Below, one piece after another: positions 45,080 through 55,817 of a DNA stretch of 64,000 nt. The first letter of the stretch is position 1, and every line of letters starts with the position of its first letter. The notes under the pieces were generated by a model. That model made no database searches. It saw nothing but the letters and a program-made list of their open reading frames with translations, and had not been told where the DNA came from. The position numbers and the translations under genes are program-made. This stretch comes from Candidatus Latescibacterota bacterium (GTDB taxonomy: Bacteria; Latescibacterota; UBA2968; GCA-2709665): positions 4,064,001 to 4,128,000 of the forward strand of contig OZ244937.1 of assembly GCA_965222075.1 (NCBI GenBank), read 5' to 3'.

Positions 45080-48000
45080 TTATGTCAATTGCTCTTCAAA
45101 TATCCGTTTCATATAGTCGTACTGCCCGTTTCGCTCGGCAAACAAAATATGCGCCCTGGCAAACTGCGCCCTATTCCACGACCCGTCCTCGTATTTCTTC
45201 TTCAATGTCTCATAAGACGTTACGGAAATGAGATATGAATCCAGTGTCACGTCCTCATTCCCGATTGCCCTTGCCAACTCCGGCAGCCTTTTGTGGAGTT
45301 GCGCTTTCTCGTCGTGTTGGTATGCATTTGCGTAGATCATCCCGTGCGGCTCCACAAAGACGATGTGCTGCTTTTTTCCCTCCTTGATCCAGAGGATGAA
45401 GTCCGGATAGAAGCCGCTCGTCTCGAAGAAGCTGACGCCTGCGCCGCGGCTTAGATTCCGCAGGAGAAACACCTCCCGTCCAGACAGTCTGCCGTCCTTC
45501 TCCTCCAACCAGTAGTCCTTCAAATCCTGGACAAACCGTCTTTCACCTGTATTCAACGCAGGGGGAGCGGTCCTGATGTTGTCATCGCTGTGCTCGACCA
45601 GCAGGGGCTGGTAGAGGTGTCGGTCGAAGTGGATGCGGCCCAATTCCGTTGTTTCCTTCTGATAGAGTCGCTCGCCATCAGCAATCAGCTTTTTGATCTT
45701 GCCCATCAAGCAGCTCTCGGACCGCCGGACGCTGATCACGTATTGGCCCTTCCCTTCCCGCACCTGGTTGGGGCTCAAATTCGGGTCGCTTTGGTCGAGT
45801 GTCTTGTAAACCATGTGTTCCGACTCCCAGCGCTCCCGCTTTGTCCGATAGAAGACGTCGACGTACTTCCGCAGAATCCTGGTTACCGCATCTTGCAGGC
45901 GGACGGTGTCCCCAAACGATTCAGGCTGCACTACCGCCTCGTCCGCGATTAGACGATACCGTTTGGGGTCTGAGAGGATATTCCGTGGCGCATCCGGTAG
46001 TACACTCAGATTATTCAGGCCCTTCTGCTCCTTGTATTCGAGCAGGTCGAGATAGGCCTGCTCCCAATTGACCAGGGCCAAGCTCTCATTGGGAAGGACT
46101 TGCTCTGTCCCCCACTGCCCGGCAGTGGTCGCAACGCCGTCGTCGCTGCTTTCCAGCGCCTGCACCTTCAGGGACATGTCGATGCGCACCTCTACAGCAG
46201 GGTCGGGCTTGAGAAGGAGATTCTCCTCGTACGCAAAATCGTATCCCTTTTTCACCCGCGGCACCACCAGACCCGCTTTCAGCAATCCATTATCGGGTCG
46301 AATGAACAACGGTGGCAACTCTTCATACCCTTCCGTATCGACGCCCTCCCACTCCAGGTATGCCCGGAACCGGGCCATATAGTTGGCACGCACGGCGAAG
46401 ATATTGAGCGTCTCCAGCAGGCCAATGTGATCCGGGTGGCTGCCGCCCAGTCCCGCGCTCCGCTTGAGGCTGGCGCCCTTGCCCCGCAGACGCACCCCGC
46501 GCCCGAAGAGCTGGATGATCTCCGCGCCCTCGATACGACCGATATTCAATAGGCCCATGTTCGAGACGCGCCAGGAGTTCCAGCCTTCCATGAATTTCTT
46601 CGCGCCAATGAGGACCTCAATCCTGGTATGCGGCCTATTGATGCCGTCGAATAGCGAGCCAGCCAGAGCGTCTTCTTCCAGTGTTATGCCAGCGTCATCG
46701 GCCTCCACCAGCTTCTTGAAGGCGCTGATGTCGCCGATGTAGATGAGGCCGAAGTAGTCCTGGGCTCCGCTCGCCTTGAGGCCCAATTCGCCGTCGGCAC
46801 CGCGGATCGCGCACACGTGCAAGCCGCCGCCGGCCGGGGCGTGGAATACTTTTTTCAAGATGTCCTGGTACATCTCCTCGAAGGGTCGCTCCATTGCCCG
46901 CAGGTACGCGAATTTGCCCGCGAACACATCCCGCCCATCCGGCGTGACCAACCCGGTCTCGCCTTTGACGAGCTGCTCAATGGCCTTGAGCGCCCAATCG
47001 GCCCGACTCAAAACGCGATGCAGGAATCGCGCCACCGTCAGCACGTCGCTGCATTTCTGCCGGTCCCTGGAGTACACCGCGTTCACCGTGCTGCCTACAA
47101 AGACCCACAGCGGCCGTTCCAAGTGATAAGGCCGCAACCCCTCGGCGTGCTCGGCGAACGTGCATTGCTGCTCGTAGAACGACAGCAAGTTGCCAAGCAG
47201 AAGCGTCTCTGTCGCCTCCTCTGTCGTCTCCTCCACGAGGTTGAGCACGCGGAAGTCCTTGCCGTACCCGTCGCCGTGGAAGTAGCGGTACGAGTAGTCG
47301 AAGGCAATGGCTTTTCCGTACTCCGTCGTAAGTGCGTCGTTGCGTGCTGCGGTCAGGGCCTGGCCGAAGGTGGCGCTGTATTCAAAGGTGAATCCACGCT
47401 CACCCAGAGCGTCGCGGAAGCTGCGCCACGCCTCGCCGCCCGAACCTTTGTGCCCTTCATCGACGAAAATCAGGTTGTTGCCCTCGAATGCCTCGACGGG
47501 TACGCTTGCACCGCCGCCGTGCTTTTGCTCGACCAGTTTGGTTATTTCAATGACCCGCACCGCGTCGTTTGCGCCCGTCGTCAGGCCACTCTCGTGGAGG
47601 TCGAAGCGCCAACAGGGGATGGCCGAGGCCGTCATCTCGTCGAGATGCTGCTCGCTCAGCCCCTCGTTGGGGGTAATCAGCAAGATATTGTCCAGGGGCT
47701 GGTTGTTGTAGTGCAGGAATTGGCGGTAGTTGAGGTGCATGATGAGGGTTTTGCCGCTGCCGGTCGCCATCCAAAAGGCGAGTTTTTTCAGGTCGGCTGC
47801 GGAGAACGGCTCACCGGCCTCGCGCTCGGCGACAAACTCGTTCAGCGAACGAAGCATCTCTCCCCGGCGGTTGAAGTATTCATCGAGGAACACTTCCGTG
47901 TAGAGCGCCGCCAGGTACTGGAAGTAGCGCAGGGTAATCGGCTCGGACCGGCGGGCGTTCATGGCGCGCAGGTGGTTGCGGATATTGTCGTCGTACCGGG

Positions 48001-48205
48001 CCAGGGCGTCCGGCAAAATGTTCGCCGCGTCCCCGCGGCCAATCAGCCGGTGATAGACAAAGCTGCGGCCTTCGGGATCGAACCCCTCGTCCGATTCCTT
48101 CATATCCGCCAGCAGGTCGCGGTTGTGCTCGTAGCCAAACTGCCGGTTGAGCCATGCCAGCAGGACCAGGTGCTGCTCCAGGCTGGTGATTTGTACGGGC
48201 GGCAT
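45080..48205 (-). CDS. res: Type III restriction enzyme Res subunit
   Basis: MATGSGKT, VDEGH, YSATF, QLFGRGVRL and C-terminal YPDF..FVEPH nuclease. Confidence 0.92.
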   Translation of the reverse strand: MPPVQITSLEQHLVLLAWLNRQFGYEHNRDLLADMKESDEGFDPEGRSFVYHRLIGRGDAANILPDALARYDDNIRNHLRAMNARRSEPITLRYFQYLAALYTEVFLDEYFNRRGEMLRSLNEFVAEREAGEPFSAADLKKLAFWMATGSGKTLIMHLNYRQFLHYNNQPLDNILLITPNEGLSEQHLDEMTASAIPCWRFDLHESGLTTGANDAVRVIEITKLVEQKHGGGASVPVEAFEGNNLIFVDEGHKGSGGEAWRSFRDALGERGFTFEYSATFGQALTAARNDALTTEYGKAIAFDYSYRYFHGDGYGKDFRVLNLVEETTEEATETLLLGNLLSFYEQQCTFAEHAEGLRPYHLERPLWVFVGSTVNAVYSRDRQKCSDVLTVARFLHRVLSRADWALKAIEQLVKGETGLVTPDGRDVFAGKFAYLRAMERPFEEMYQDILKKVFHAPAGGGLHVCAIRGADGELGLKASGAQDYFGLIYIGDISAFKKLVEADDAGITLEEDALAGSLFDGINRPHTRIEVLIGAKKFMEGWNSWRVSNMGLLNIGRIEGAEIIQLFGRGVRLRGKGASLKRSAGLGGSHPDHIGLLETLNIFAVRANYMARFRAYLEWEGVDTEGYEELPPLFIRPDNGLLKAGLVVPRVKKGYDFAYEENLLLKPDPAVEVRIDMSLKVQALESSDDGVATTAGQWGTEQVLPNESLALVNWEQAYLDLLEYKEQKGLNNLSVLPDAPRNILSDPKRYRLIADEAVVQPESFGDTVRLQDAVTRILRKYVDVFYRTKRERWESEHMVYKTLDQSDPNLSPNQVREGKGQYVISVRRSESCLMGKIKKLIADGERLYQKETTELGRIHFDRHLYQPLLVEHSDDNIRTAPPALNTGERRFVQDLKDYWLEEKDGRLSGREVFLLRNLSRGAGVSFFETSGFYPDFILWIKEGKKQHIVFVEPHGMIYANAYQHDEKAQLHKRLPELARAIGNEDVTLDSYLISVTSYETLKKKYEDGSWNRAQFARAHILFAERNGQYDYMKRIFEEQLT

Positions 48206-48207
48206 TT

Positions 48208-48309
48208 CTATGCCTCTTCGCCGACGATGGTTTTCAGCTGCTCGTCTACTGTCCTGGTGGCGTGGTTCAGCATATCCATCAGGCTTATCCGGTCATTACG
48301 CCTGCTCAT
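48208..48309 (-). pseudogene. Internally deleted HEPN/DUF86 (HepT) toxin remnant
   Basis: 33 codons MSRRNDRISLMDMLNHA-TRTVDEQLKTIVGEEA overlapping the MNT stop; N- and C-termini look DUF86-like, no Rx4-6H motif. Confidence 0.7.
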
Positions 48310-48610
48310 ACACCGCCTCCGCCGAGTTGATTATCTCCTCCCGGAGCAGCCAGTTGCGGCTGCTTTCGACTCCCCCGAAGGTGTGTAAATCCGCCTTCCG
48401 CCCCAGGATTTTGTCCAGTTCAATCTCCAATTCGGCCAGCCCGATGTAGCCAATACGTGCATCCGGCTCGAACTCCACGAGTACATCCACATCGCTCTCA
48501 GGCGTGAAGTCGTCGCGCAGCACCGAGCCGAACAGGGCCATGCGCCGGATGTGATTGCGCCGACAGAAGGCGGCGATCTTGTCTTTTGGGGTGTCGATCT
48601 TGATGCTCAT
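48296..48610 (-). CDS. Minimal nucleotidyltransferase (MntA-type antitoxin)
   Basis: LFGSVLRDDFTPESDVDVLVEF (GSx10DxD), LGRKADL. Confidence 0.92.
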   Translation of the reverse strand: MSIKIDTPKDKIAAFCRRNHIRRMALFGSVLRDDFTPESDVDVLVEFEPDARIGYIGLAELEIELDKILGRKADLHTFGGVESSRNWLLREEIINSAEAVYEQA

Positions 48611-48690
48611 GGTTCTGCTCCTGCAAATAGCCAAGCCTTGAATATCAGCGCCAGGGCTTTTGCCTCGCGAATGAAAAATTCATTACTTTT
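48607..48690 (-). pseudogene. Relic 3' end of a Type III mod gene
   Basis: Translates FFIREAKALALIFKAWLFAGAEP*, colinear with Mod SFIREARALEPVFKRRMFAETGK*. Confidence 0.7.
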
Positions 48691-48691
48691 G

Positions 48692-49777
48692 CTACCCTTC
48701 CAACTGACATGCCGGCGCAAACGTCTCAATATCCCAATCGGTTTGTGAACCGAACATCCGGCGCAGACGGATCATTCCGTGAGACGGAGCTACATGACTG
48801 ATCCTTTTACTAGCTTCCCGGATAGTCTTTTCTACTGTTCTATTCCTTCTCCGTGCGGGTTTGGAACTAGGAAGGTCGAACGGTGCAGTCGCATAAGCCT
48901 TTCTAGTAAACGAGAGAATACGTTTTACGTCGCTCTCCGTCGGCAAACTCCGTCCACCTTTTCTCCACGGAGTGAGCGCCGCTATTGGTTCACTATGCAG
49001 CATCTCATTCCATACTCTATCCTCATGGGCGTTTTGGGAACCATGATGTGGAACTTTGAAAACGGAAGCTTTGCAATTCGGCCGTTCGTGGGCAGCGAGT
49101 ATATCCAACCAGCCACGCCCCTCAAGATCGGAACCGAGGAGAATCGCTGTATCGTCGATCTTGATTAATAGAACAACCGCAATTTTGTTAGGGGTCAGGG
49201 TAGGAGTTCGCCTTTTTGTTTCACGTTCCTGTGGCCGGAGACGGTCTATTTCCTGCAAGAAGCTGTTAACTTCCTTGTCGAAAGGCGAGAGGGACCAGAT
49301 TTCGCAACTATCCCGACTAAAGATTCTACGATTGGCTATGGCGAATACAGGCTTGGCAGACCTCTCCTCAAGTAGTGACCGGACTTTGTAGAGTTCCTGC
49401 ATTCCAGAGCCCACTTGGGACATAGGACGACTCGCTATAGCGTCCATCATTGCGAGGAATTCTTGTGTACGAAGAGCACTTGCACAGCAGAAAGTCGCAT
49501 CGTCGCAGGTCTCGATCAACTCTCCCATGCCACGTATATGGTCGTCATGCCAATGAGTGGTAACTATGAGGTGAACTACCTCAGGAGGATCTAATCCCAT
49601 GCCATGGAGATAAGCCAACGCTACCGGACGAGAATCTGCACCGATACAGGAATCGACAATTACCCAACTTCCGTTCCCTATATGGAGAAGTATGCATTCT
49701 CCGTAACCAGGGCCGACAAGGGTTACTTCCATCACGTTGTGTTTAGGCGGAACTCCGAGGGTAGTTAGTCCGCCCAT
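48692..49777 (-). CDS. MBL-fold metallo-hydrolase (ComEC/Rec2-like)
   Basis: GYGEC, VDS, THWHDDH, GSD, KVPHHGS motifs. Confidence 0.88.
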   Translation of the reverse strand: MGGLTTLGVPPKHNVMEVTLVGPGYGECILLHIGNGSWVIVDSCIGADSRPVALAYLHGMGLDPPEVVHLIVTTHWHDDHIRGMGELIETCDDATFCCASALRTQEFLAMMDAIASRPMSQVGSGMQELYKVRSLLEERSAKPVFAIANRRIFSRDSCEIWSLSPFDKEVNSFLQEIDRLRPQERETKRRTPTLTPNKIAVVLLIKIDDTAILLGSDLEGRGWLDILAAHERPNCKASVFKVPHHGSQNAHEDRVWNEMLHSEPIAALTPWRKGGRSLPTESDVKRILSFTRKAYATAPFDLPSSKPARRRNRTVEKTIREASKRISHVAPSHGMIRLRRMFGSQTDWDIETFAPACQLEG

Positions 49778-50379
49778 AACTGAAAGGTCTTCCTGGCCCG
49801 TTCCTCGGCTTCGGCTATATCCTGTTTGGTCACAACAGGAAGTTCGCGGAAGACGATCCGGGAGACACGCTGCTTAGTTCCACTCACGGAACGCTCGTAG
49901 CCGATGACCCAGCGAAAGATGCTGCCGAGGCGCAGACGCTTGAGGTCGTCTTCTGAAATCTCGGAAAGAGGAATGACGGCTTCTTCCTCTTCATACGAGG
50001 AACTGGCAGTCAGGTCTAATAGCCGCACTGTGAAGTCGTCTTCTCCTATTTCTGTGACATGCCCTTCCCACTCCTGAAGCAGATGAAAACTGACTTGGGG
50101 CACAGTCCGCGAAATTTGAGCTAGGTCAGGAAAATCAGTGATTACGTCAACATCGAAACCGGCTCCAGTCGCTATCGGGCGGACCTCAATGGTCCTCTCC
50201 GAGACGTCAGTGTCATATAGCTCCGAATTTCGGCGCTGTTTTAGTGTAGCCGCGATCCGGTCCGCATATCCTTCCCGAAGAAGCAATTGCTCAAAGGTAT
50301 TAGATGCACTCGGATTTTTGTTGACCCCTGATGAGTCCTGAAGTCTGTTGCCCGCAGGGGCGAATGCAGCTTCCGACAT
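49765..50379 (-). CDS. Hypothetical protein, C-terminal possible OB-like domain
   Basis: Coupled to both neighbours; QEWEGHVTEI..F.VRL..G.IF.W.IG beta-rich pattern. Confidence 0.72.
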   Translation of the reverse strand: MSEAAFAPAGNRLQDSSGVNKNPSASNTFEQLLLREGYADRIAATLKQRRNSELYDTDVSERTIEVRPIATGAGFDVDVITDFPDLAQISRTVPQVSFHLLQEWEGHVTEIGEDDFTVRLLDLTASSSYEEEEAVIPLSEISEDDLKRLRLGSIFRWVIGYERSVSGTKQRVSRIVFRELPVVTKQDIAEAEERARKTFQLWAD

Positions 50380-50381
50380 TC

Positions 50382-51077
50382 TTATTTCTCCGTTAAGGAC
50401 ATAATGTGATCGATGATTTTGTCTGCACGCCGCAAAGATTCGTCAAAATTCTCCTCTAGTAACGCGACGATTTTACTGGTTCCCACCTGGCTCTCTACGT
50501 TCTCAATAGTATAGTGGTCATTGACTCGAACGTAAACGCCGAGACGGCCTTGGCCGATCCGGCTGGATGGTTCCACCGTCACGTTTATTTGTCCTCCCAG
50601 CGGCCTACCGTCCGGATTTACTTGTCTCATAGTAAGAGAAGTCATACCACCATGCTCTCCATCTGGTTCCAGTTTCTGTCCCCAATCTCCCCATGGCTCG
50701 ACAGGTGCCAGCAATCTGCCGAGCCGATCTCGCTCGTCAAAGCTCTGCACGGAAAAGTGTACTTCTCGGTTGATCCCCATTACTTTAAGGGGGATATGAG
50801 GAAGGTTTTCTCGGAAAATTCGGACAGCCAAGTCCCGCAGGCGAACATAGGGGGGCTGAGTCGTGTTGATTTGGAAGGATTCTGGTTGGACATGCAGGTT
50901 GAGCCAATCCGCCTCGAACATCGTAATCTGAGGATGAGCGATTTTCGTATCTGCAGTTTCGACCGTCCTTTCAGGAAGAAGCCCATGCCATCCGAACCAC
51001 GCAGGTGGAAAAATCGCAGGATTGAAATGGCCAAGCATGACGAGCGAAACCTCGGCAATTTCGGGTTCAATTTTCAT
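50382..51077 (-). CDS. Hypothetical protein (first gene of three-gene module)
   Basis: 231 aa; G.FNP.IF.P.W, LPH.P...GIN, VNDH; CAGGAG RBS. Confidence 0.75.
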   Translation of the reverse strand: MKIEPEIAEVSLVMLGHFNPAIFPPAWFGWHGLLPERTVETADTKIAHPQITMFEADWLNLHVQPESFQINTTQPPYVRLRDLAVRIFRENLPHIPLKVMGINREVHFSVQSFDERDRLGRLLAPVEPWGDWGQKLEPDGEHGGMTSLTMRQVNPDGRPLGGQINVTVEPSSRIGQGRLGVYVRVNDHYTIENVESQVGTSKIVALLEENFDESLRRADKIIDHIMSLTEK

Positions 51078-51218
51078 TGCTGGTTTCTCCTGTCGAATAG
51101 TCTATTGGTCTTTGCTTGACGAATTGGACATCTCATGCGTCGTATAGAGGCGGCGGTTATTCCCACATAGAGCCTTCCCCCATGTCTTTGTGCCTTCGTG
51201 TTCGCCTCTGTTTTGTCT

Positions 51219-52700
51219 TCATCGCTCGGCTTCTCGGTCGTCAGGGTTCTCCGAGAGTTTTTTCATCATGAGCCTTATCATTTCGTTAAAGATCTTCTTG
51301 AGCACCTCCAAATTCTGTCCCGTGTACTCTTTATTATAATCGAGATCATAGGAATAAAATTTCCAGACGCAAAGATTCGAGTCTGCTTCATTATCAATGT
51401 AGAGATCAAAATTGGCACTCTGGTCCCCTTGAAAATCCCATAACTCAAAATTGATGCGAGTAGAAATAGAAACCGCGTTTTCAGGCCAGGTGTCACTCTT
51501 CTCTTCTAGCCAAAAAGTAGAAATTTTGTTGTCAGCCTTTCTTACAGAAGAATTACTATCAGAAGAATCAATACAGTGATGGAATAAGGGATACAGCACC
51601 TTGTCCGCATATTCTCTTACTTGAATTGTCTCACCTGTGCCCTTTTGGACAGAACGTTTGAAGAGTGCGATTTCTTTATCTATGTCCTCCACATCTTCAA
51701 TATCCTCTCCACGGGCGGCTTTTAGATGGAGGTTCAGGGCATATTTGCAACACTCGGCAATGTAGGTGATAAACTCAGCCAGGTCTTCGCTCTTGTCGGC
51801 CTGCTCCAGCGAGTCGATGTATCGGTTTCTCTCCTGTATGGGTATGATTGCCACCGTGTAGCCGTGCCTGATCAGGATCATGTTCATCAAAAGCCGCGCC
51901 GTGCGCCCGTTCCCATCGTCAAAAGGATGAATGTGGACGAAGCGATAGTGAAACGTGGCAGCGATGACAATGGGATGCTCGCCCTCGTCCTCTTGTCTTC
52001 TGTACCAGTCTATGAGATCGCTCATCGCTGGTTTTACCTGCTCTGGCGGCGTAAAATAGTATATCTCGCCGGTAGAGGTTCGCACGTTATTTGGCTGTGT
52101 TTTGTAGTCTCCAATAGTAATAAGTCGCTTTGTGGGCTGTCCATCCGGCGTTATGGCGTCGATTTCATAAGGCTCTTTCAACAACACTTTATGGAGATTT
52201 CGGATGAAGATCTCGTTGAGCGATTCGTTTCTTTTTATTGCGTCCTCTATCGCTTTTACCGCCTTATCATGCCCCTCAATGTCCAGATGATCGCGCATCG
52301 GCTTCCCGTGGGCAGTGAGCCCATGGAGGATCAGACTTCTCGTTTCTCCGAGAGTCAGGCTGTTGCCTTCTATGGCATTGGAGTAATAGTTCGACTCGAT
52401 CCTGAGCTTTTGCTCTATCCGACCCACGACGTCAGAAGGCAATGGCCGCAACGCGTCCAGTTCCCGTTTCAGGCGATCGATTTCTTCAATGGTCGTTGAG
52501 CCGGTCGAAGCGTTGATATGGTTCAGAGTCTGTTCCTGCGTTTCTTCGTTCCTTTCCCGCTCTGCGTCTTCTGTGGAACTGGCCGGAGGCGTAGATGGGC
52601 TGAGTGAGCCATCCTGCAGTTCTTCGTTCCTTTCCCGCTCCGTGCCTACCCATCTCTTCCAGAATTTCCAACTTTGTGTTTTTGTGTCTTTGTGTGCCAT
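51219..52700 (-). CDS. Fic domain protein (SoFIC-like architecture)
   Basis: SNAIEGN inhibitory motif and HPFDDGNGRTAR catalytic motif; long C-terminal extension. Confidence 0.92.
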   Translation of the reverse strand: MAHKDTKTQSWKFWKRWVGTERERNEELQDGSLSPSTPPASSTEDAERERNEETQEQTLNHINASTGSTTIEEIDRLKRELDALRPLPSDVVGRIEQKLRIESNYYSNAIEGNSLTLGETRSLILHGLTAHGKPMRDHLDIEGHDKAVKAIEDAIKRNESLNEIFIRNLHKVLLKEPYEIDAITPDGQPTKRLITIGDYKTQPNNVRTSTGEIYYFTPPEQVKPAMSDLIDWYRRQEDEGEHPIVIAATFHYRFVHIHPFDDGNGRTARLLMNMILIRHGYTVAIIPIQERNRYIDSLEQADKSEDLAEFITYIAECCKYALNLHLKAARGEDIEDVEDIDKEIALFKRSVQKGTGETIQVREYADKVLYPLFHHCIDSSDSNSSVRKADNKISTFWLEEKSDTWPENAVSISTRINFELWDFQGDQSANFDLYIDNEADSNLCVWKFYSYDLDYNKEYTGQNLEVLKKIFNEMIRLMMKKLSENPDDREAER

Positions 52701-55700
52701 TTATTTCCCCGTTTCCGCGAACATTCGTCGCTTAAACACCGGCTCCAGTGCCCTGGCCTCGCGGATGAACGAATCGCCGTTGACATAGACCTCATCCACG
52801 CCTTCGGTTAATTGCTGCTCGGCCACGAAGTCCTTGTCTCGCTCGAAGTCTGGCTTCTGCCAGCCCTCGGTTTCTCGCCAGATAACCCCCACCCTGCGCC
52901 CTTCGCGCGTTTGGCCGCGATAGACCAGGTATCGCCGACCTTCGTCGTAATACACGCGCCGCGTCTCGACGCGCAGGCCGAGCAGGTAGTTGAACGTCTC
53001 CGGGATGTCGGCGATCTGCTTCCGCGTCTGGCCGTCGGCGTGAATATGCAGCGTATAGCGGAATGGCTGCGATAGCTTCTTCACGTTGAGCAACGTCTCG
53101 CTGCGCCTGGTTTCCCATTGGAGCATGTACTTGAGCAGGTAGTCGTCAAATTGCAACGCTTGCTGGGCAGAAGCCTCGTCGAAGTCGATGTTGTTCAGGG
53201 CGTCCTCGTAGGATTCCAAGCGCATATATTTGACAATACGGGGACTGCGCCTGGCTTCTTCCGGCGTTGCCATGCACCTGGGCTTGCCGTCTTTCCATTC
53301 GGGCGTGAATGTGATCTTTTTGATACGCGGCAGGAGCACGGTGTCGAAGTAATCTCCCATCTCCACCAGAATGAACTTGCGCTGCCCGCCATCCTCACGG
53401 TTGAGGTTGATGACCGCGTGGCCGGTGGTGCCGGAGCCTGCAAAATAATCAACACAATAGTCGCCATCGTACAACTGACAAACCCGTAGGCAATCTGCAA
53501 CTGTGTAAACTGACTTAGGAAAGGAAAAAGCATTGGACGAACCCAAGATGTGGGCAAGTAGATTCGTACCGTAGTCGGTTGCGGAGTATTTCTTATCGAT
53601 CCATAAAGTTGACGGTAAAGTGCCCTGCTTCAGGCGTGACTTCATATAAATGCCTAACTTTCCCATTCTATCCGGTCTCGCGGTGAGATCGGAAATTTTC
53701 TTAATCGCCGTTTCGTGCCCCCATTTCCAAGTCTTCTCTTCCCCCTTCGCATTTACGGGGTATACAATTACCTCTCCCTTGACTGGTTCGGAGAAAGATT
53801 CCCATTTCCCTTCACTACTGTTCCAGACAAAGGATGGAATTCTAACCGTGCCAGAATCACTCGCGTAGATCGGATAGAATAGCCTGGGTCTAGCAAACCG
53901 GTTTGCGTTGTAACCACCGTGCTTTCTGAAATTCACTAACTCGAACTGACTTTTAGCATCCCGTTCTTTGTATCTTGCTATCTGATCTTCCGACTTTGGC
54001 AAACGGCCAACAACCGTAGGGCTGGTATTTGCGACAAATATTGCATATTCGTGAGCGACCGAAAAACCCGTTAGATTCGACCGACCTGCAGGATTGCTAC
54101 GAATAATCGCGGTTCCTAAGACGGCATCCTTTCCAAAGACGCTCGACAGAGCGTCACGTAGACGATGGTATTCAGAATCGTCGATTGCCACACACAACGT
54201 TCCTGGGGAATTCACCAACGTCATAGCGATGACAAGCCGGTCATTCATGAGCGAGAGCCATGATGAGTGCTTATAATCATTCTTGTAAAGGATTTCGGAT
54301 GCAGCGGTATTAAACGGCGGATCTATATACACGCATTTCACGTCATATCGATTCTTCTCAAAGAGAAAATTGAGTGCTTGCCAGTTTTCGCTGTGGATGA
54401 GCAGGCCGTCGGTCATCTCGTCCAAATCGCCAAAACTGCCCAACAGCCGGTCTACGAACCTCTGGTCGAAATGTCTGGTATCGAGCACGAGTGTCGGATG
54501 CGTCTTCAGAAAGGCGACGCGCTTGCCTGTTTTGTTCTTGCCCGAGTTGAACAGGTCGGTTTGATCTTCGTCGATGCCGAACAATTCTGTCCACTCGGCC
54601 CATTGCGGTTCACATCCGGCAATGTCGGGGTAAAAGCTTTCGCCAATGTTGCCAACCGTGATGCAGTATTGCGTGTCAGTGACGAACTTGCGCTTCTCCC
54701 AGAGCATTTTCTGAAAGTTCTCAATCTGATCCAGAAAATCGATGATCCGGCCGCCGACGGAGCGGACCGTCCGCATCATCTGGAACCAGCCCTCAGCACG
54801 ATCCTCGCCGGCCGCTTCCATCTCGTCGAGGCTCAGCACTTCGTTCTTGAGATAGAAATCGAGTTCGCGGGCGAGAAAGCCCTTCAGGTCTTTGTGGATG
54901 AAGAAGTCAGAGGTGTTGCGCCGGGTGTACTGGCGCAGGTGGTGTTCGAGGAGGGTGATTGGCTCGCTATCGCTATTCTGAGATTTTTCAGCCGTCAGTG
55001 CAGCCAATGGGTCTTGCGTTTTTTTCAACTGCTCGGGGATCTCTTTCAGGGCCTGGGTGATGATCTTTTCCTGCTGATTCTTTTTGCCGTAGGTGATTTC
55101 CTCCTGTGCAGTCAGGGGCCGGTACTCAAAGGGGATTTTGAGCCGGCTGGCCTTCTCATCATAGGTGACGGCGCACGGCAGGAAAAACCGCTTGTCACCC
55201 TTGACGTTGTCCTTTTCGACATCAGCCGCCTGAAGTTTGAAATGCACCGCAACCCCGCGTGCCGCAAACGAATAGTCGTGGAAGTGCTCGGCGGTCTTGA
55301 CGTAGTACTGGTCGCTGTTGGCCCAATGGAGGTGGACCTCTTCGCCATTGTAGGGGATGGCGTACCGCTGGTTCCTGGAGTAGCGGCGCTTTGAGATGAA
55401 GTCGCCGTCCTGATAATAGCGGCTAAAGAAGGCGTACAGGTGGTTGAAGATCACGGTTTCGAGGGCATCGCGGCCGCCACCGCCACCGACCTTTTTCTTC
55501 AGGTCCTCGTACTTCTTTCCGATCTCGGACGCCTGGAATTTGACGAGATTGCCGTCGGCATCAATGGCGTCAGTGGCCAGCGTACTTTTTATCTGCTGGG
55601 CGACTTCCTCCAGCTCTTTGGCGGCCTGGTTCTGATCGGCCAACGCGCCGATGTTCAGTTCCTCGGCTATGGCATTTGGCAAGTCCTCCGCGATAAACCG

Positions 55701-55817
55701 CTCGATTACGTCCCGCTTGTGATTCATGATGCGGTAGATGCCGAAGTCCAGGTCGGCGCAGTCGAACTGGAACAATTCGCGCAAAAGGCTCTGAAATTTC
55801 TTCAGCGACTCATTCAT
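52701..55817 (-). CDS. mod: Type III R-M Mod subunit (amino-methyltransferase)
   Basis: DLDFGIYRIMN, YIDPPFNT (motif IV), DYFAGSGTTG (motif I), LESYEDALNN. Confidence 0.92.
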   Translation of the reverse strand: MNESLKKFQSLLRELFQFDCADLDFGIYRIMNHKRDVIERFIAEDLPNAIAEELNIGALADQNQAAKELEEVAQQIKSTLATDAIDADGNLVKFQASEIGKKYEDLKKKVGGGGGRDALETVIFNHLYAFFSRYYQDGDFISKRRYSRNQRYAIPYNGEEVHLHWANSDQYYVKTAEHFHDYSFAARGVAVHFKLQAADVEKDNVKGDKRFFLPCAVTYDEKASRLKIPFEYRPLTAQEEITYGKKNQQEKIITQALKEIPEQLKKTQDPLAALTAEKSQNSDSEPITLLEHHLRQYTRRNTSDFFIHKDLKGFLARELDFYLKNEVLSLDEMEAAGEDRAEGWFQMMRTVRSVGGRIIDFLDQIENFQKMLWEKRKFVTDTQYCITVGNIGESFYPDIAGCEPQWAEWTELFGIDEDQTDLFNSGKNKTGKRVAFLKTHPTLVLDTRHFDQRFVDRLLGSFGDLDEMTDGLLIHSENWQALNFLFEKNRYDVKCVYIDPPFNTAASEILYKNDYKHSSWLSLMNDRLVIAMTLVNSPGTLCVAIDDSEYHRLRDALSSVFGKDAVLGTAIIRSNPAGRSNLTGFSVAHEYAIFVANTSPTVVGRLPKSEDQIARYKERDAKSQFELVNFRKHGGYNANRFARPRLFYPIYASDSGTVRIPSFVWNSSEGKWESFSEPVKGEVIVYPVNAKGEEKTWKWGHETAIKKISDLTARPDRMGKLGIYMKSRLKQGTLPSTLWIDKKYSATDYGTNLLAHILGSSNAFSFPKSVYTVADCLRVCQLYDGDYCVDYFAGSGTTGHAVINLNREDGGQRKFILVEMGDYFDTVLLPRIKKITFTPEWKDGKPRCMATPEEARRSPRIVKYMRLESYEDALNNIDFDEASAQQALQFDDYLLKYMLQWETRRSETLLNVKKLSQPFRYTLHIHADGQTRKQIADIPETFNYLLGLRVETRRVYYDEGRRYLVYRGQTREGRRVGVIWRETEGWQKPDFERDKDFVAEQQLTEGVDEVYVNGDSFIREARALEPVFKRRMFAETGK

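Follow-up and report, generated by a model that had tools for sequence, protein, structure and literature searches.

A 64,000-nucleotide stretch of the genome of a Candidatus Latescibacterota bacterium (contig OZ244937.1, positions 4,064,001 to 4,128,000; hereafter the window, in whose numbering coordinates are given) contains three closely coupled genes, A, B and C, on the minus strand between the mod and res genes of a type III restriction-modification (R-M) operon. This trio is most likely an undescribed anti-phage system, and we consider it rather probable that it operates as a latent nuclease defence module whose regulators are not proteases. The known part would be the latent effector, a ComEC-type nuclease with the metallo-beta-lactamase (MBL) fold encoded by gene C; the new part would be its non-protease partners, A and B. 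The three genes, drawn from the list of open reading frames (ORFs), and the block of DNA that carries them are as follows.

Gene A, 50382-51077, minus strand: 231 amino acids (aa), unnamed family (ORF list).
Gene B, 49765-50379, minus strand: 204 aa, disordered acidic N-terminus plus OB-fold (ORF list, AlphaFold2 (AF2) model).
Gene C (MBL), 48692-49777, minus strand: 361 aa, soluble ComEC-type MBL-fold hydrolase (ORF list, Pfam Lactamase_B).
Mobile cassette block, 48701-51122, minus strand: 2.42 kb (blastn against related loci).

Genes A and B are separated by 2 bp and B overlaps the MBL gene by 13 bp, so that the ORF list agrees exactly with a preliminary description of this DNA, which had reported three coupled genes on the minus strand with this spacing. 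A GGAG sequence lies 8-9 nt ahead of the ATG of gene A. Both A and B can be taken as real genes because homologous protein clusters exist for each, 591 for A and 532 for B at 90% identity, and all of them are unnamed.

Protein C matches Pfam Lactamase_B (E = 2e-9, 38.1 bits against a cut-off of 22.7). Its translation contains the motifs T74-HWHDDH80, G215-SD217 and K241-VPHHGS247, and residues D42, H75, H77, D78, D79, H80, D217, H244 and H245 are the same in all 29 homologs that were aligned. C thus carries the HxHxDH signature of the MBL-fold superfamily together with the downstream Asp and His metal ligands, and the intact ComEC-type motifs THWHDDH, GSD and KVPHHGS of the preliminary description are confirmed by the invariance of their key residues. 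When a profile of the 29 homologs was compared with the PDB, the closest solved relatives were MBL domains of ComEC (9ic4_A, E = 3e-9; 30bt_A, E = 1.3e-7). The absence of a membrane domain, also claimed at the outset, is borne out. No competence membrane domain was found in C with Pfam, and in a Kyte-Doolittle analysis no 19-residue window exceeded 1.6 in A, B or C, the maximum for C being 1.52. Against the NCBIfam ComEC models C scores 18.7 bits (TIGR00361, cut-off 190) and 20.7 bits (NF008580, cut-off 969). Because it has no hydrophobic segment and scores far below the ComEC cut-offs, C is, as judged from its sequence, a soluble, stand-alone relative of the ComEC nuclease domain. Its family and its intact metal ligands make it a probable metal-dependent DNase. 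Matches of C to models of MBL proteins from defence systems are weak and partial, with RTasMBL (3e-13, 47.6 bits) and LmuA (1.4e-11, 42.1 bits) followed by PDC-M48B (1.7e-6, 25.1 bits), 6A-MBL (7e-6, 25.4 bits) and Avs1a (4e-4, 19.2 bits). Among the PHROGs, C matches phrog_28593 (1.3e-40), a virus protein family of unknown function. Inserted ORFs of about 320-460 aa (clusters c43, c40 and c117), possibly insertion sequences, interrupt the MBL gene at three related loci (L012, L016 and L040).

Protein B belongs to a large family. A profile search returned 3748 representatives (50% clustering) at E ≤ 1e-3, and 2529 at E ≤ 1e-10. The alignment and the AF2 model together divide the protein in two. 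Residues 1-95 form a variable, disordered and acidic N-terminus, with pLDDT mostly below 50 over residues 1-91 of the model, and residues 97-204 form a conserved acidic domain, comprising a five-stranded OB barrel (pLDDT 78-95) followed by a C-terminal helix. The barrel of residues 97-180 is closed and matches solved OB, S1 and CSD domains. With VIA the similarity is moderate, the best matches being eIF5A (Z 7.3, rmsd 2.4 over 62 aligned residues) and EF-P (Z 6.9), and with Foldseek the LysRS N-domain (E = 6e-3) and the S1 domains of eIF2alpha and the exosome are found with E between 6e-3 and 5e-2 and probability 0.9-1.0. The model and both comparisons therefore uphold the earlier suggestion that the second gene encodes an OB-like protein; as read from the model, the matches are evidence for the OB fold only, and not for nucleic acid binding. 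ComEC is not among the best 50 fold matches of this domain. The N-terminus has a calculated pI of 4.65 and the C-terminal domain one of 4.79, the median of the latter over 68 homologs being 4.8. No DNA-binding domain of the helix-turn-helix (HTH) or ribbon-helix-helix (RHH) type was found in B with Pfam. A single protein, P0309 (438 aa), is a fusion of A and B. Two further architectures were seen in the family. P0244 has a tandem pair of B-type OB domains and no disordered N-terminus, and P0290 is an FtsZ-like protein with a C-terminal B domain, which may be an artefact of gene calling and was not used.

The association of the three proteins was modelled as a complex of three chains (A, C, and B as the partner) with custom alignments. 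The model has an ipSAE of 0.71 (0.69, 0.71 and 0.73 in individual runs) compared with 0.00, 0.00 and 0.14 in controls; the pLDDT of the partner is at least 59 and the contact agreement at least 53%. Replacement of the MBL protein drops the score to 0.14, and therefore only the contact between B and C is supported; in this part the complex prediction that had been proposed as a check came out in favour of the trio. The OB domain of B (residues 96-204) is predicted to contact the MBL protein at residues 45-49, beside D42-C44, and at residue 82, beside H80, with further contacts at 103-122, 133-143, 181-192 and 272-274. The tightest predicted contact is made with the C-terminal tail of C, residues 307-330, where MBL residues 322-328 face B residues 132-137. 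The 135-residue stretch of C between H80 and D217 is also touched by B in the model. On A, the modelled contacts with B lie at residues 4-8, 33-37, 73-90 and 212-216.

Neither A nor B has a match in Pfam (E ≤ 0.01), PADLOC, NCBIfam or PHROGs. Protein A has the conserved motifs FNPaIFtPaWF, GINReVHF and VNDHY, and its AF2 model is a two-lobed alpha+beta structure with a pLDDT of 84. The preliminary description had proposed to test A for likeness to TIGR04255, a family termed 'sporadically distributed protein', and such a likeness is not demonstrated. Taking a score above 30 bits with the hidden Markov model (HMM) of the family as the mark of a member, the HMM is silent on A (E ≤ 0.1) and on its diverged homologs; in the same genome it matches other genes, and not A at E ≤ 10. 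With hhalign the A profile gives E = 0.17 (probability 0.35%, with the alignment in register) against 29 TIGR04255 members, and E = 0.12 against a single member. What does point to TIGR04255 is the nearest protein-language-model cluster to A, which has a score of 0.97 and was automatically given that name. The two families share a similar length, and TIGR04255 genes too are followed by unannotated ORFs on the same strand. At the TIGR04255 loci of the phylum (29; L081, L090-L118) nearly all are followed by a same-strand ORF of about 110-310 aa, and often a second of about 130-170 aa comes next; these ORFs form several unrelated clusters, and from sequence they and TIGR04255 look like small unannotated cassettes of their own. 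The partner ORFs were tried as relatives of B and rejected, with hhalign E of 0.31 and 0.52 for two partners and no Pfam match for 10 representatives.

The three genes are conserved as a unit. A pattern scan, taking one genome per species, gave 155 loci with a relative of A, of which 80 were retained. By their record titles these 80 span more than 10 phyla or classes, among them Latescibacterota, Poribacteria, Nitrospirota, Gemmatimonadota, Dehalococcoidia/SAR202, Acidobacteriota, Alpha- and Gammaproteobacteria, Binatia, Spirochaetia, Rhodothermales and Entotheonella. By tblastn, B immediately follows A at 79 of these loci, the sole miss being at a contig end, and at 76 the MBL gene comes next on the same strand; it is lacking at L015, L031 and L069, and L011 is cut. 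The proposed check of co-occurrence therefore comes out clearly in favour of a three-gene unit.

The order A-B-MBL is also kept on two plasmids and in one prophage at 28-33% identity. A plasmid of Adhaeribacter swui has a trio annotated as hypothetical, hypothetical and MBL fold metallo-hydrolase, in which A is 28.6% identical (E = 3e-23), B is found with hhalign (98%, E = 1.3e-13) and the MBL protein is 29% identical (E = 2e-52). On a conjugative plasmid of Pantoea agglomerans the trio is flanked by two tyrosine recombinases; here A (93.7%, E = 2e-7) and B (69%, E = 4e-5) are found with hhalign and the MBL protein is 31% identical (E = 4e-37). In E. coli EC11 (L132, NZ_CP027255.1 2805611-2808011) the trio lies in a lambdoid prophage between the antiterminator Q gene and the holin gene, on the strand opposite to the late genes, with A (92.7%, E = 4e-7) and B (88.8%, E = 2.5e-6) found with hhalign and an MBL protein 33% identical (E = 4e-51). 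The slot between Q and holin in lambdoid phages is the place of cargo expressed in the lysogen. Of 5426 complete E. coli genomes, 15 have a DNA match to part of the EC11 MBL gene, and one of these was inspected. At these three loci (L130, L131 and L132) the annotated A and B genes overlap.

Within the phylum the trio is patchy. In a sample of 151 genomes A occurs in 21 genomes belonging to 7 of 46 genera, and it was not found in a 94%-complete genome of the same genus as the window. B occurs in 33 genomes of the sample and the MBL gene in 23. Every one of the 21 genomes with A has B, and 12 have B without A. B is likewise found in 22 of the 23 genomes with an MBL gene, the exception (G108) having an MBL fragment on an assembly of 290 contigs. 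The MBL gene is truncated, split or missing in eight genomes (G072, G007, G150, G078, G055, G108, G138 and G028), seven of which keep a match to B, in G055 over the OB domain only; the eighth, G108, has no match to B. Eleven regions were retrieved around matches to B that have no match to A, and several are visible relics. One (L123) has the order mod, fic, B remnant, MBL fragments, MNT, res, and two (L124 and L129) have fic followed by a B of 113 aa. From this pattern of decay we conclude that loss begins with the effector and ends with the OB protein, the genomes being related and the counts not independent. As read from these sequences, the pattern agrees with a nuclease that is costly or toxic and that has in B a harmless or protective partner. 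ORFs upstream of B-only loci were considered as diverged forms of A and rejected (hhalign E of 0.58 and 0.27). ORFs of 90-130 aa encoding the OB domain only, with neither A nor MBL, stand after Fic genes or in slots of the Hma system described below (L124, L125, L126, L127 and L129), and the protein database repeatedly shows matching clusters of 112-114 aa, P0193 (25 member sequences) being one of them. These short ORFs could be relics, or could have an independent function.

The position of the trio in the window has to be seen against its mobility. The other genes of the locus are these.

Type III mod methyltransferase, 52701-55817, minus strand: 1038 aa (PADLOC MTase_III 1.9e-183; Pfam N6_N4_Mtase 1.8e-22).
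Fic-domain protein, 51219-52700, minus strand: 493 aa (Pfam Fic 1.5e-21; PADLOC PDC-S04 3.9e-33, SoFic 2e-32).
MNT-type nucleotidyltransferase, 48296-48634, minus strand (Pfam NTP_transf_2 1.6e-15; PADLOC PDC-S09 2e-22).
Type III res restriction/helicase subunit, 45080-48205, minus strand: 1041 aa (PADLOC REase_III 1.8e-146; Pfam ResIII 8.4e-12).

The mod and res ORFs are both intact and on the same strand (PADLOC), confirming the type III context, and the Fic and MNT genes, which the preliminary description did not include, also lie between them. Comparison with related loci by blastn defines a block that extends from 45 nt upstream of the start codon of A to about 7-12 nt before the stop codon of the MBL gene. 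This block is 94-95% identical to its counterparts at L002, L003 and L004, 92% to that at L014 and 87% to that at L001, while the flanking mod, fic, MNT and res segments of those loci are only 75-85% identical. Its position also differs from locus to locus. It stands before mod at L002, L003, L005, L006 and L019, between fic and res at L008 as in the window, and after res at L011 and L016. Because the identity of the block exceeds that of its flanks and its position varies, the trio is, on this comparison, a discrete, autonomous and horizontally mobile cassette rather than a part of the type III operon. The earlier placement of the trio inside a type III operon therefore stands insofar as it lies between mod and res, but the association is not specific, the operon being one of several landing slots. 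The claim that the trio is more AT-rich than its surroundings holds against the genes below 48 kb, but mod and fic are AT-rich too; the G+C content of the cassette is 0.507, compared with 0.580 in the window as a whole, 0.588 in res, 0.531 in mod and 0.477 in fic.

Other features of the locus were noted. The start of fic abuts the stop of mod, and fic has the same position after mod at L002, L005, L008, L011, L016 and L019. The interior of mod, 53450-54370 (about 900 bp), has no match at the DNA level in related loci, where the ends of the gene align at 75-83%, and from its sequence this middle region is probably a swapped target-recognition region. The true start of the MNT gene is probably the ATG at 48610, as judged by sequence, and the protein matches NCBIfam MntA at 6.2e-9, under the cut-off. 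Directly after MNT (48208-48309, minus strand) there is only a 33-codon ORF, where related loci carry a gene of 88-121 aa (cluster c32). The likeness to the DNA of L002 ends at 48259 and restarts at 48233, skipping about 280 nt of L002, and the partner gene of MNT, presumably a HEPN toxin, thus appears to have been truncated by deletion. No Rfam family reached threshold between 44000 and 57000, and a scan of 48000-52000 for promoters and terminators was uninformative, with 4 and 5 sites against 2.8 and 3.3 expected.

Many copies of the trio lie among defence genes. In about 35 of the 80 loci there is at least one gene of a type III or Hma system within 10 kb, a type III, Fic or MNT gene accounting for 15 of them and an Hma gene for 20. 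A full type III pair of mod and res is present at 8 of the 80 loci, and at least one gene of that operon at 15. The Hma genes comprise HmaC at 14 loci, DUF7680 at 19, HmaB at 14 and HmaA at 9. In the Hma (DUF499/DUF1156) system, which corresponds to type-1 BR in the accessible text of PMC12839542, the order is HmaC/DUF499, DUF7680, the trio, HmaB/DUF1156 methylase and HmaA PLD-SNF2 helicase.

The genome of the window itself has a second, diverged trio (G000:C1:1429100-1431490), in which A is 65% and the MBL protein 53% identical to the first copy. This lies in an Hma/type-1 BR operon (G000:C1:1422019-1443537; L089 and beyond), the interior of which holds about 12 kb of defence cargo on one strand. 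After HmaC and DUF7680 come NsnABC, the trio, a PDC-S28 DinG-like helicase and Septu PtuAB, and then HmaB and HmaA. In other genomes of the phylum the same Hma slot has other combinations, or only a short B-like ORF (L122, L125, L126 and L127). With some 35 loci in or beside type III or Hma systems and a second copy among Nsn, PDC-S28 and Septu, the defence neighbourhood expected by the preliminary description is found.

Comparison with systems already described indicates what may be new here. The ComEC-like MBL proteins found with Hachiman, AVAST, Lamassu and DRT are DNases in zymogen form, whose active site is covered by internal linkers until these are cleaved by a fused protease of the trypsin type (PMC12799240 and 10.1101/2025.11.14.688446, in their accessible parts). 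Such modules are marked by a protease gene of the trypsin, caspase or subtilisin type next to the MBL gene, in most cases fused to the sensor, and by two internal linkers with conserved cleavage sites. The MBL proteins of these systems (HamM of HamMAB/Hachiman, Avs, Lamassu and DRT) are, in the same accessible parts, likewise stand-alone soluble relatives of ComEC at a remote level and latent DNases, as we presume for C; their genes too stand next to those of dedicated regulators and turn up again in several kinds of defence setting. The trio is unlike them in having no trypsin-, caspase- or subtilisin-like protease, with no domain found in A or B by Pfam, PADLOC or NCBIfam and with Fic and MNT as neighbours. 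Its MBL gene comes last and not upstream of its partner, and the MBL protein scores far below the level of the zymogen families, 19.2 bits against a cut-off of 420 for Avs1a, with RTasMBL and LmuA matching in part. Where the zymogens have cleavable internal linkers, the trio has a separate OB-fold protein that is predicted to sit at the active-site loops. The full PDC-M48 and 6A-MBL systems are not present either. Their MBL components match C weakly over residues 186-260 and 182-258 (25.1 bits, and 25.4 bits against a cut-off of 220), and A and B are unmatched.

ComEC/Rec2 combines OB, competence membrane and MBL domains and shares the HxHxDH and HHGS motifs with C, and we take B and C to resemble the OB and MBL modules of ComEC as separate soluble proteins. 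The trio differs from ComEC/Rec2 in the lack of a membrane domain, in scores below the cut-offs and in its mobile, patchy distribution. Another likeness is to the auxiliary effectors of BREX and BR loci in the accessible part of PMC12839542, the trio being likewise a nuclease-bearing module between Hma core genes. The effectors named in the main text of that paper have HNH, HKD, PD-(D/E)XK, TOPRIM/OLD, HEPN, PIN and Schlafen domains, and neither 'MBL' nor 'lactamase' occurs there. The trio shares the Hma slot with Septu (OLD-ABC + HNH) and with the GmrSD-like Nsn, and it differs from the BREX and BR auxiliary effectors in that it also occurs with no such system nearby.

The statement that the trio matches no named system is thus upheld, since A and B are unmatched in PADLOC, NCBIfam, Pfam and PHROGs and C has only weak, partial matches to defence models. 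The literature searched, including a text search on MBL, OB-fold and three-gene terms, contained no description of the trio, although supplementary tables may list it. Term searches of PMC13069673, PMC13092281 and 10.1101/2025.09.30.679545, limited to the accessible text apart from supplementary tables, gave no passage on it, and no paper was found for TIGR04255, for phrog_28593 or for the three E. coli protein accessions.

Taken together, these data suggest how the cassette may work. C would be the effector, a soluble nuclease of the ComEC type with the MBL fold, as expected from its family. B is predicted to bind C with its acidic OB domain, at the C-terminal tail (residues 307-330) and at loops beside the metal-binding motifs. 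B would then be a dedicated clamp on the nuclease, acting either as inhibitor or as licensing subunit, a role we assign because of the predicted binding, the gene order and overlap, the pattern of decay and the acidity of B. It may inhibit C in the manner of an antitoxin, or may present substrate as the OB domain of ComEC might. A would be the input or sensor part, which we infer purely from its strict linkage and the one fusion. The cassette would keep a dangerous DNase latent and free it on a cue from an invader, whether phage or plasmid. The logic would be shared with the MBL zymogens that proteases activate in Hachiman, AVAST, Lamassu and DRT, except that a partner protein acting in trans would replace the protease, and the type III operon of the window would be merely one cargo slot. 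The preliminary description had read the trio as a module of sensor, adaptor and nuclease, and that reading is supported by the co-occurrence of the genes, their neighbourhood, the lack of a named match and the OB fold. A bolder version is tentative and, in our view, somewhat doubtful. This would have a widespread unnamed immune system in which a separate acidic OB protein, possibly a DNA mimic, clamps a ComEC-type DNase, A, as a protein of a novel fold family, senses the invader and removes or repositions the clamp, and operons of the R-M type serve as general cargo slots for swapped secondary defences.

Several points weigh against the latent nuclease module. Defence, toxicity and nuclease activity are all deduced from sequence. 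There is no invariant His between H80 and D217 of C in the 29 aligned homologs, and therefore the canonical third MBL motif is not evident. The acidity of B (pI 4.8) makes it a poor fit to a classical nucleic-acid-binding OB fold. In the complex the interface between A and B alone is not confident, the score being 0.14 with the MBL protein replaced, and the calibration of the tool, where 58 of 80 solved complexes and 2 of 110 mismatched pairs attained the mark that the full model reaches, holds only roughly for a job with three chains and custom alignments. The structural matches of A are at the level of noise (Z ≤ 8.5), and no function can be derived from them on the model; with VIA they are the catalytic domain of McsB/arginine kinase (Z 8.5, rmsd 3.9, 164 aligned), AdoMetDC (Z 7.3) and TBP, and the TM scores with Foldseek are 0.25-0.35. 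About 45 of the 80 loci have no gene of the type III or Hma systems searched for within 10 kb, and some have metabolic neighbours (rhamnose mutarotase, SDR, acetate kinase). Searches of 50,697 phage records with A and with the MBL protein (tblastn) gave no match.

The nearest neighbours and the transcripts carry similar limits. Nearest neighbours were counted for proteins of at least 150 aa at E ≤ 1e-10, among the 25 commonest families listed. Among the matches listed for 78 upstream neighbours were HmaC (4), three REase_III models (2, 1 and 1, which may overlap) and Fic (2), with one each for ShosA, REase_I, PDC-S11, PDC-M38B and PsyrA; those listed for 73 downstream neighbours included HmaB (7), MTase_III (5) and Fic (3), and these counts are an indication and not a statistic, there being no matched background and the related genomes not being independent. 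Four metatranscriptome libraries that bear the label sponge or coral metagenome contain short contigs which match parts of A, B and C at 90-100% identity and span both gene junctions, most pieces coming from relatives. They give a weak hint of transcription, the contigs being short and RNA libraries possibly containing DNA.

The same observations can be read in other ways. The trio could be an addiction module similar to a toxin-antitoxin (TA) pair, with no dedicated antiviral role, in which C is the toxin, B the antitoxin with a protease-labile N-terminus and A a regulator or chaperone, together stabilising the islands, plasmids and prophages in which they lie. We think this unlikely. In its favour, gene B precedes and overlaps gene C, which is the arrangement of type II TA pairs; the first 95 residues of B are disordered and acidic, and the protein is predicted to contact C near the metal site; one MBL genome (G108) lacks B whereas B stands alone in about 10 genomes of the 151 sampled; and the cassette is found on plasmids and in a prophage. 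Yet a conserved third gene of 231 aa is atypical of TA pairs, C and B, at 361 and 204 aa, are big for members of a type II pair, B has no HTH or RHH domain in Pfam, and the repeated use of cargo slots shared with Septu and Nsn fits defence at least equally. TA function and defence by abortive infection are, moreover, not mutually exclusive. Both copies in this genome lie inside an operon of methylase and helicase or nuclease genes on the same strand, as do about 35 of the 80 loci, which would suit a back-up effector coupled in function to the R-M-like system around it, in the manner of PrrC and EcoprrI. The mod/res or Hma proteins would hold it silent, and their inhibition by a phage would set it free. 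Nucleases with an auxiliary or back-up role are indeed described within BREX and BR loci in the accessible part of PMC12839542, but the main text of that paper has no MBL effector by name. At most loci the surrounding 10 kb contain no operon of this kind, the copies on plasmids and in the prophage also lack one, and the associated host systems are two and unrelated. The variable site in the type III locus, before mod, between fic and res, or after res, looks like insertion and not wiring, and we regard such a back-up role as improbable.

We give equally little credence to a function outside conflict, in which the proteins form a soluble complex for DNA processing or another hydrolytic task (uptake, recycling, repair or small-molecule hydrolysis) that happens to travel on mobile DNA. 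The MBL domain of ComEC works in DNA uptake (cited in the accessible part of PMC12799240). MBL-fold enzymes act on many substrates, the type III and Hma genes searched for are missing from over half of the 80 loci, some of which have metabolic neighbours, and the His of the third MBL motif is not evident; set against this are the patchy distribution (21 of 151 genomes), the frequent formation of pseudogenes, a cassette younger than its flanks, the prophage slot between Q and holin together with the defence cargo slots, and the lack of any link to a metabolic operon that is kept across phyla. That the genes instead serve the mobile element, by degrading the DNA of host or competitor or by counter-defence from prophages and plasmids, seems very improbable. 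The E. coli copy does lie in a lambdoid prophage, the MBL protein matches phrog_28593 (1.3e-40) and two plasmid copies stand beside recombinases. The 80 loci, however, come from chromosomes or contigs of metagenome-assembled genomes, in which phage genes were not screened, A and the MBL protein are unmatched in the phage records, and the prophage trio is oriented opposite to the late genes, the usual layout of cargo expressed in the lysogen. A latent nuclease module with partners that are not proteases therefore stays our preferred explanation of the trio.

If the trio is a defence system, a pair of regulators from two unknown families would join the short list of mechanisms by which ComEC-like DNases are kept latent. 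Direct testing is possible because homologous copies are available in an E. coli prophage, a conjugative plasmid of Pantoea and a plasmid of Adhaeribacter. With 3748 representatives in the B family, many proteins now annotated as hypothetical would then acquire a role. The use of type III and Hma/type-1 BR operons as slots in which Septu, Nsn, PDC-S28 and the trio are exchanged bears on how defence islands are assembled. If B is indeed a clamp, this would be a new way to license a ComEC-type DNase, used across more than 10 phyla and thousands of clusters of the B family.

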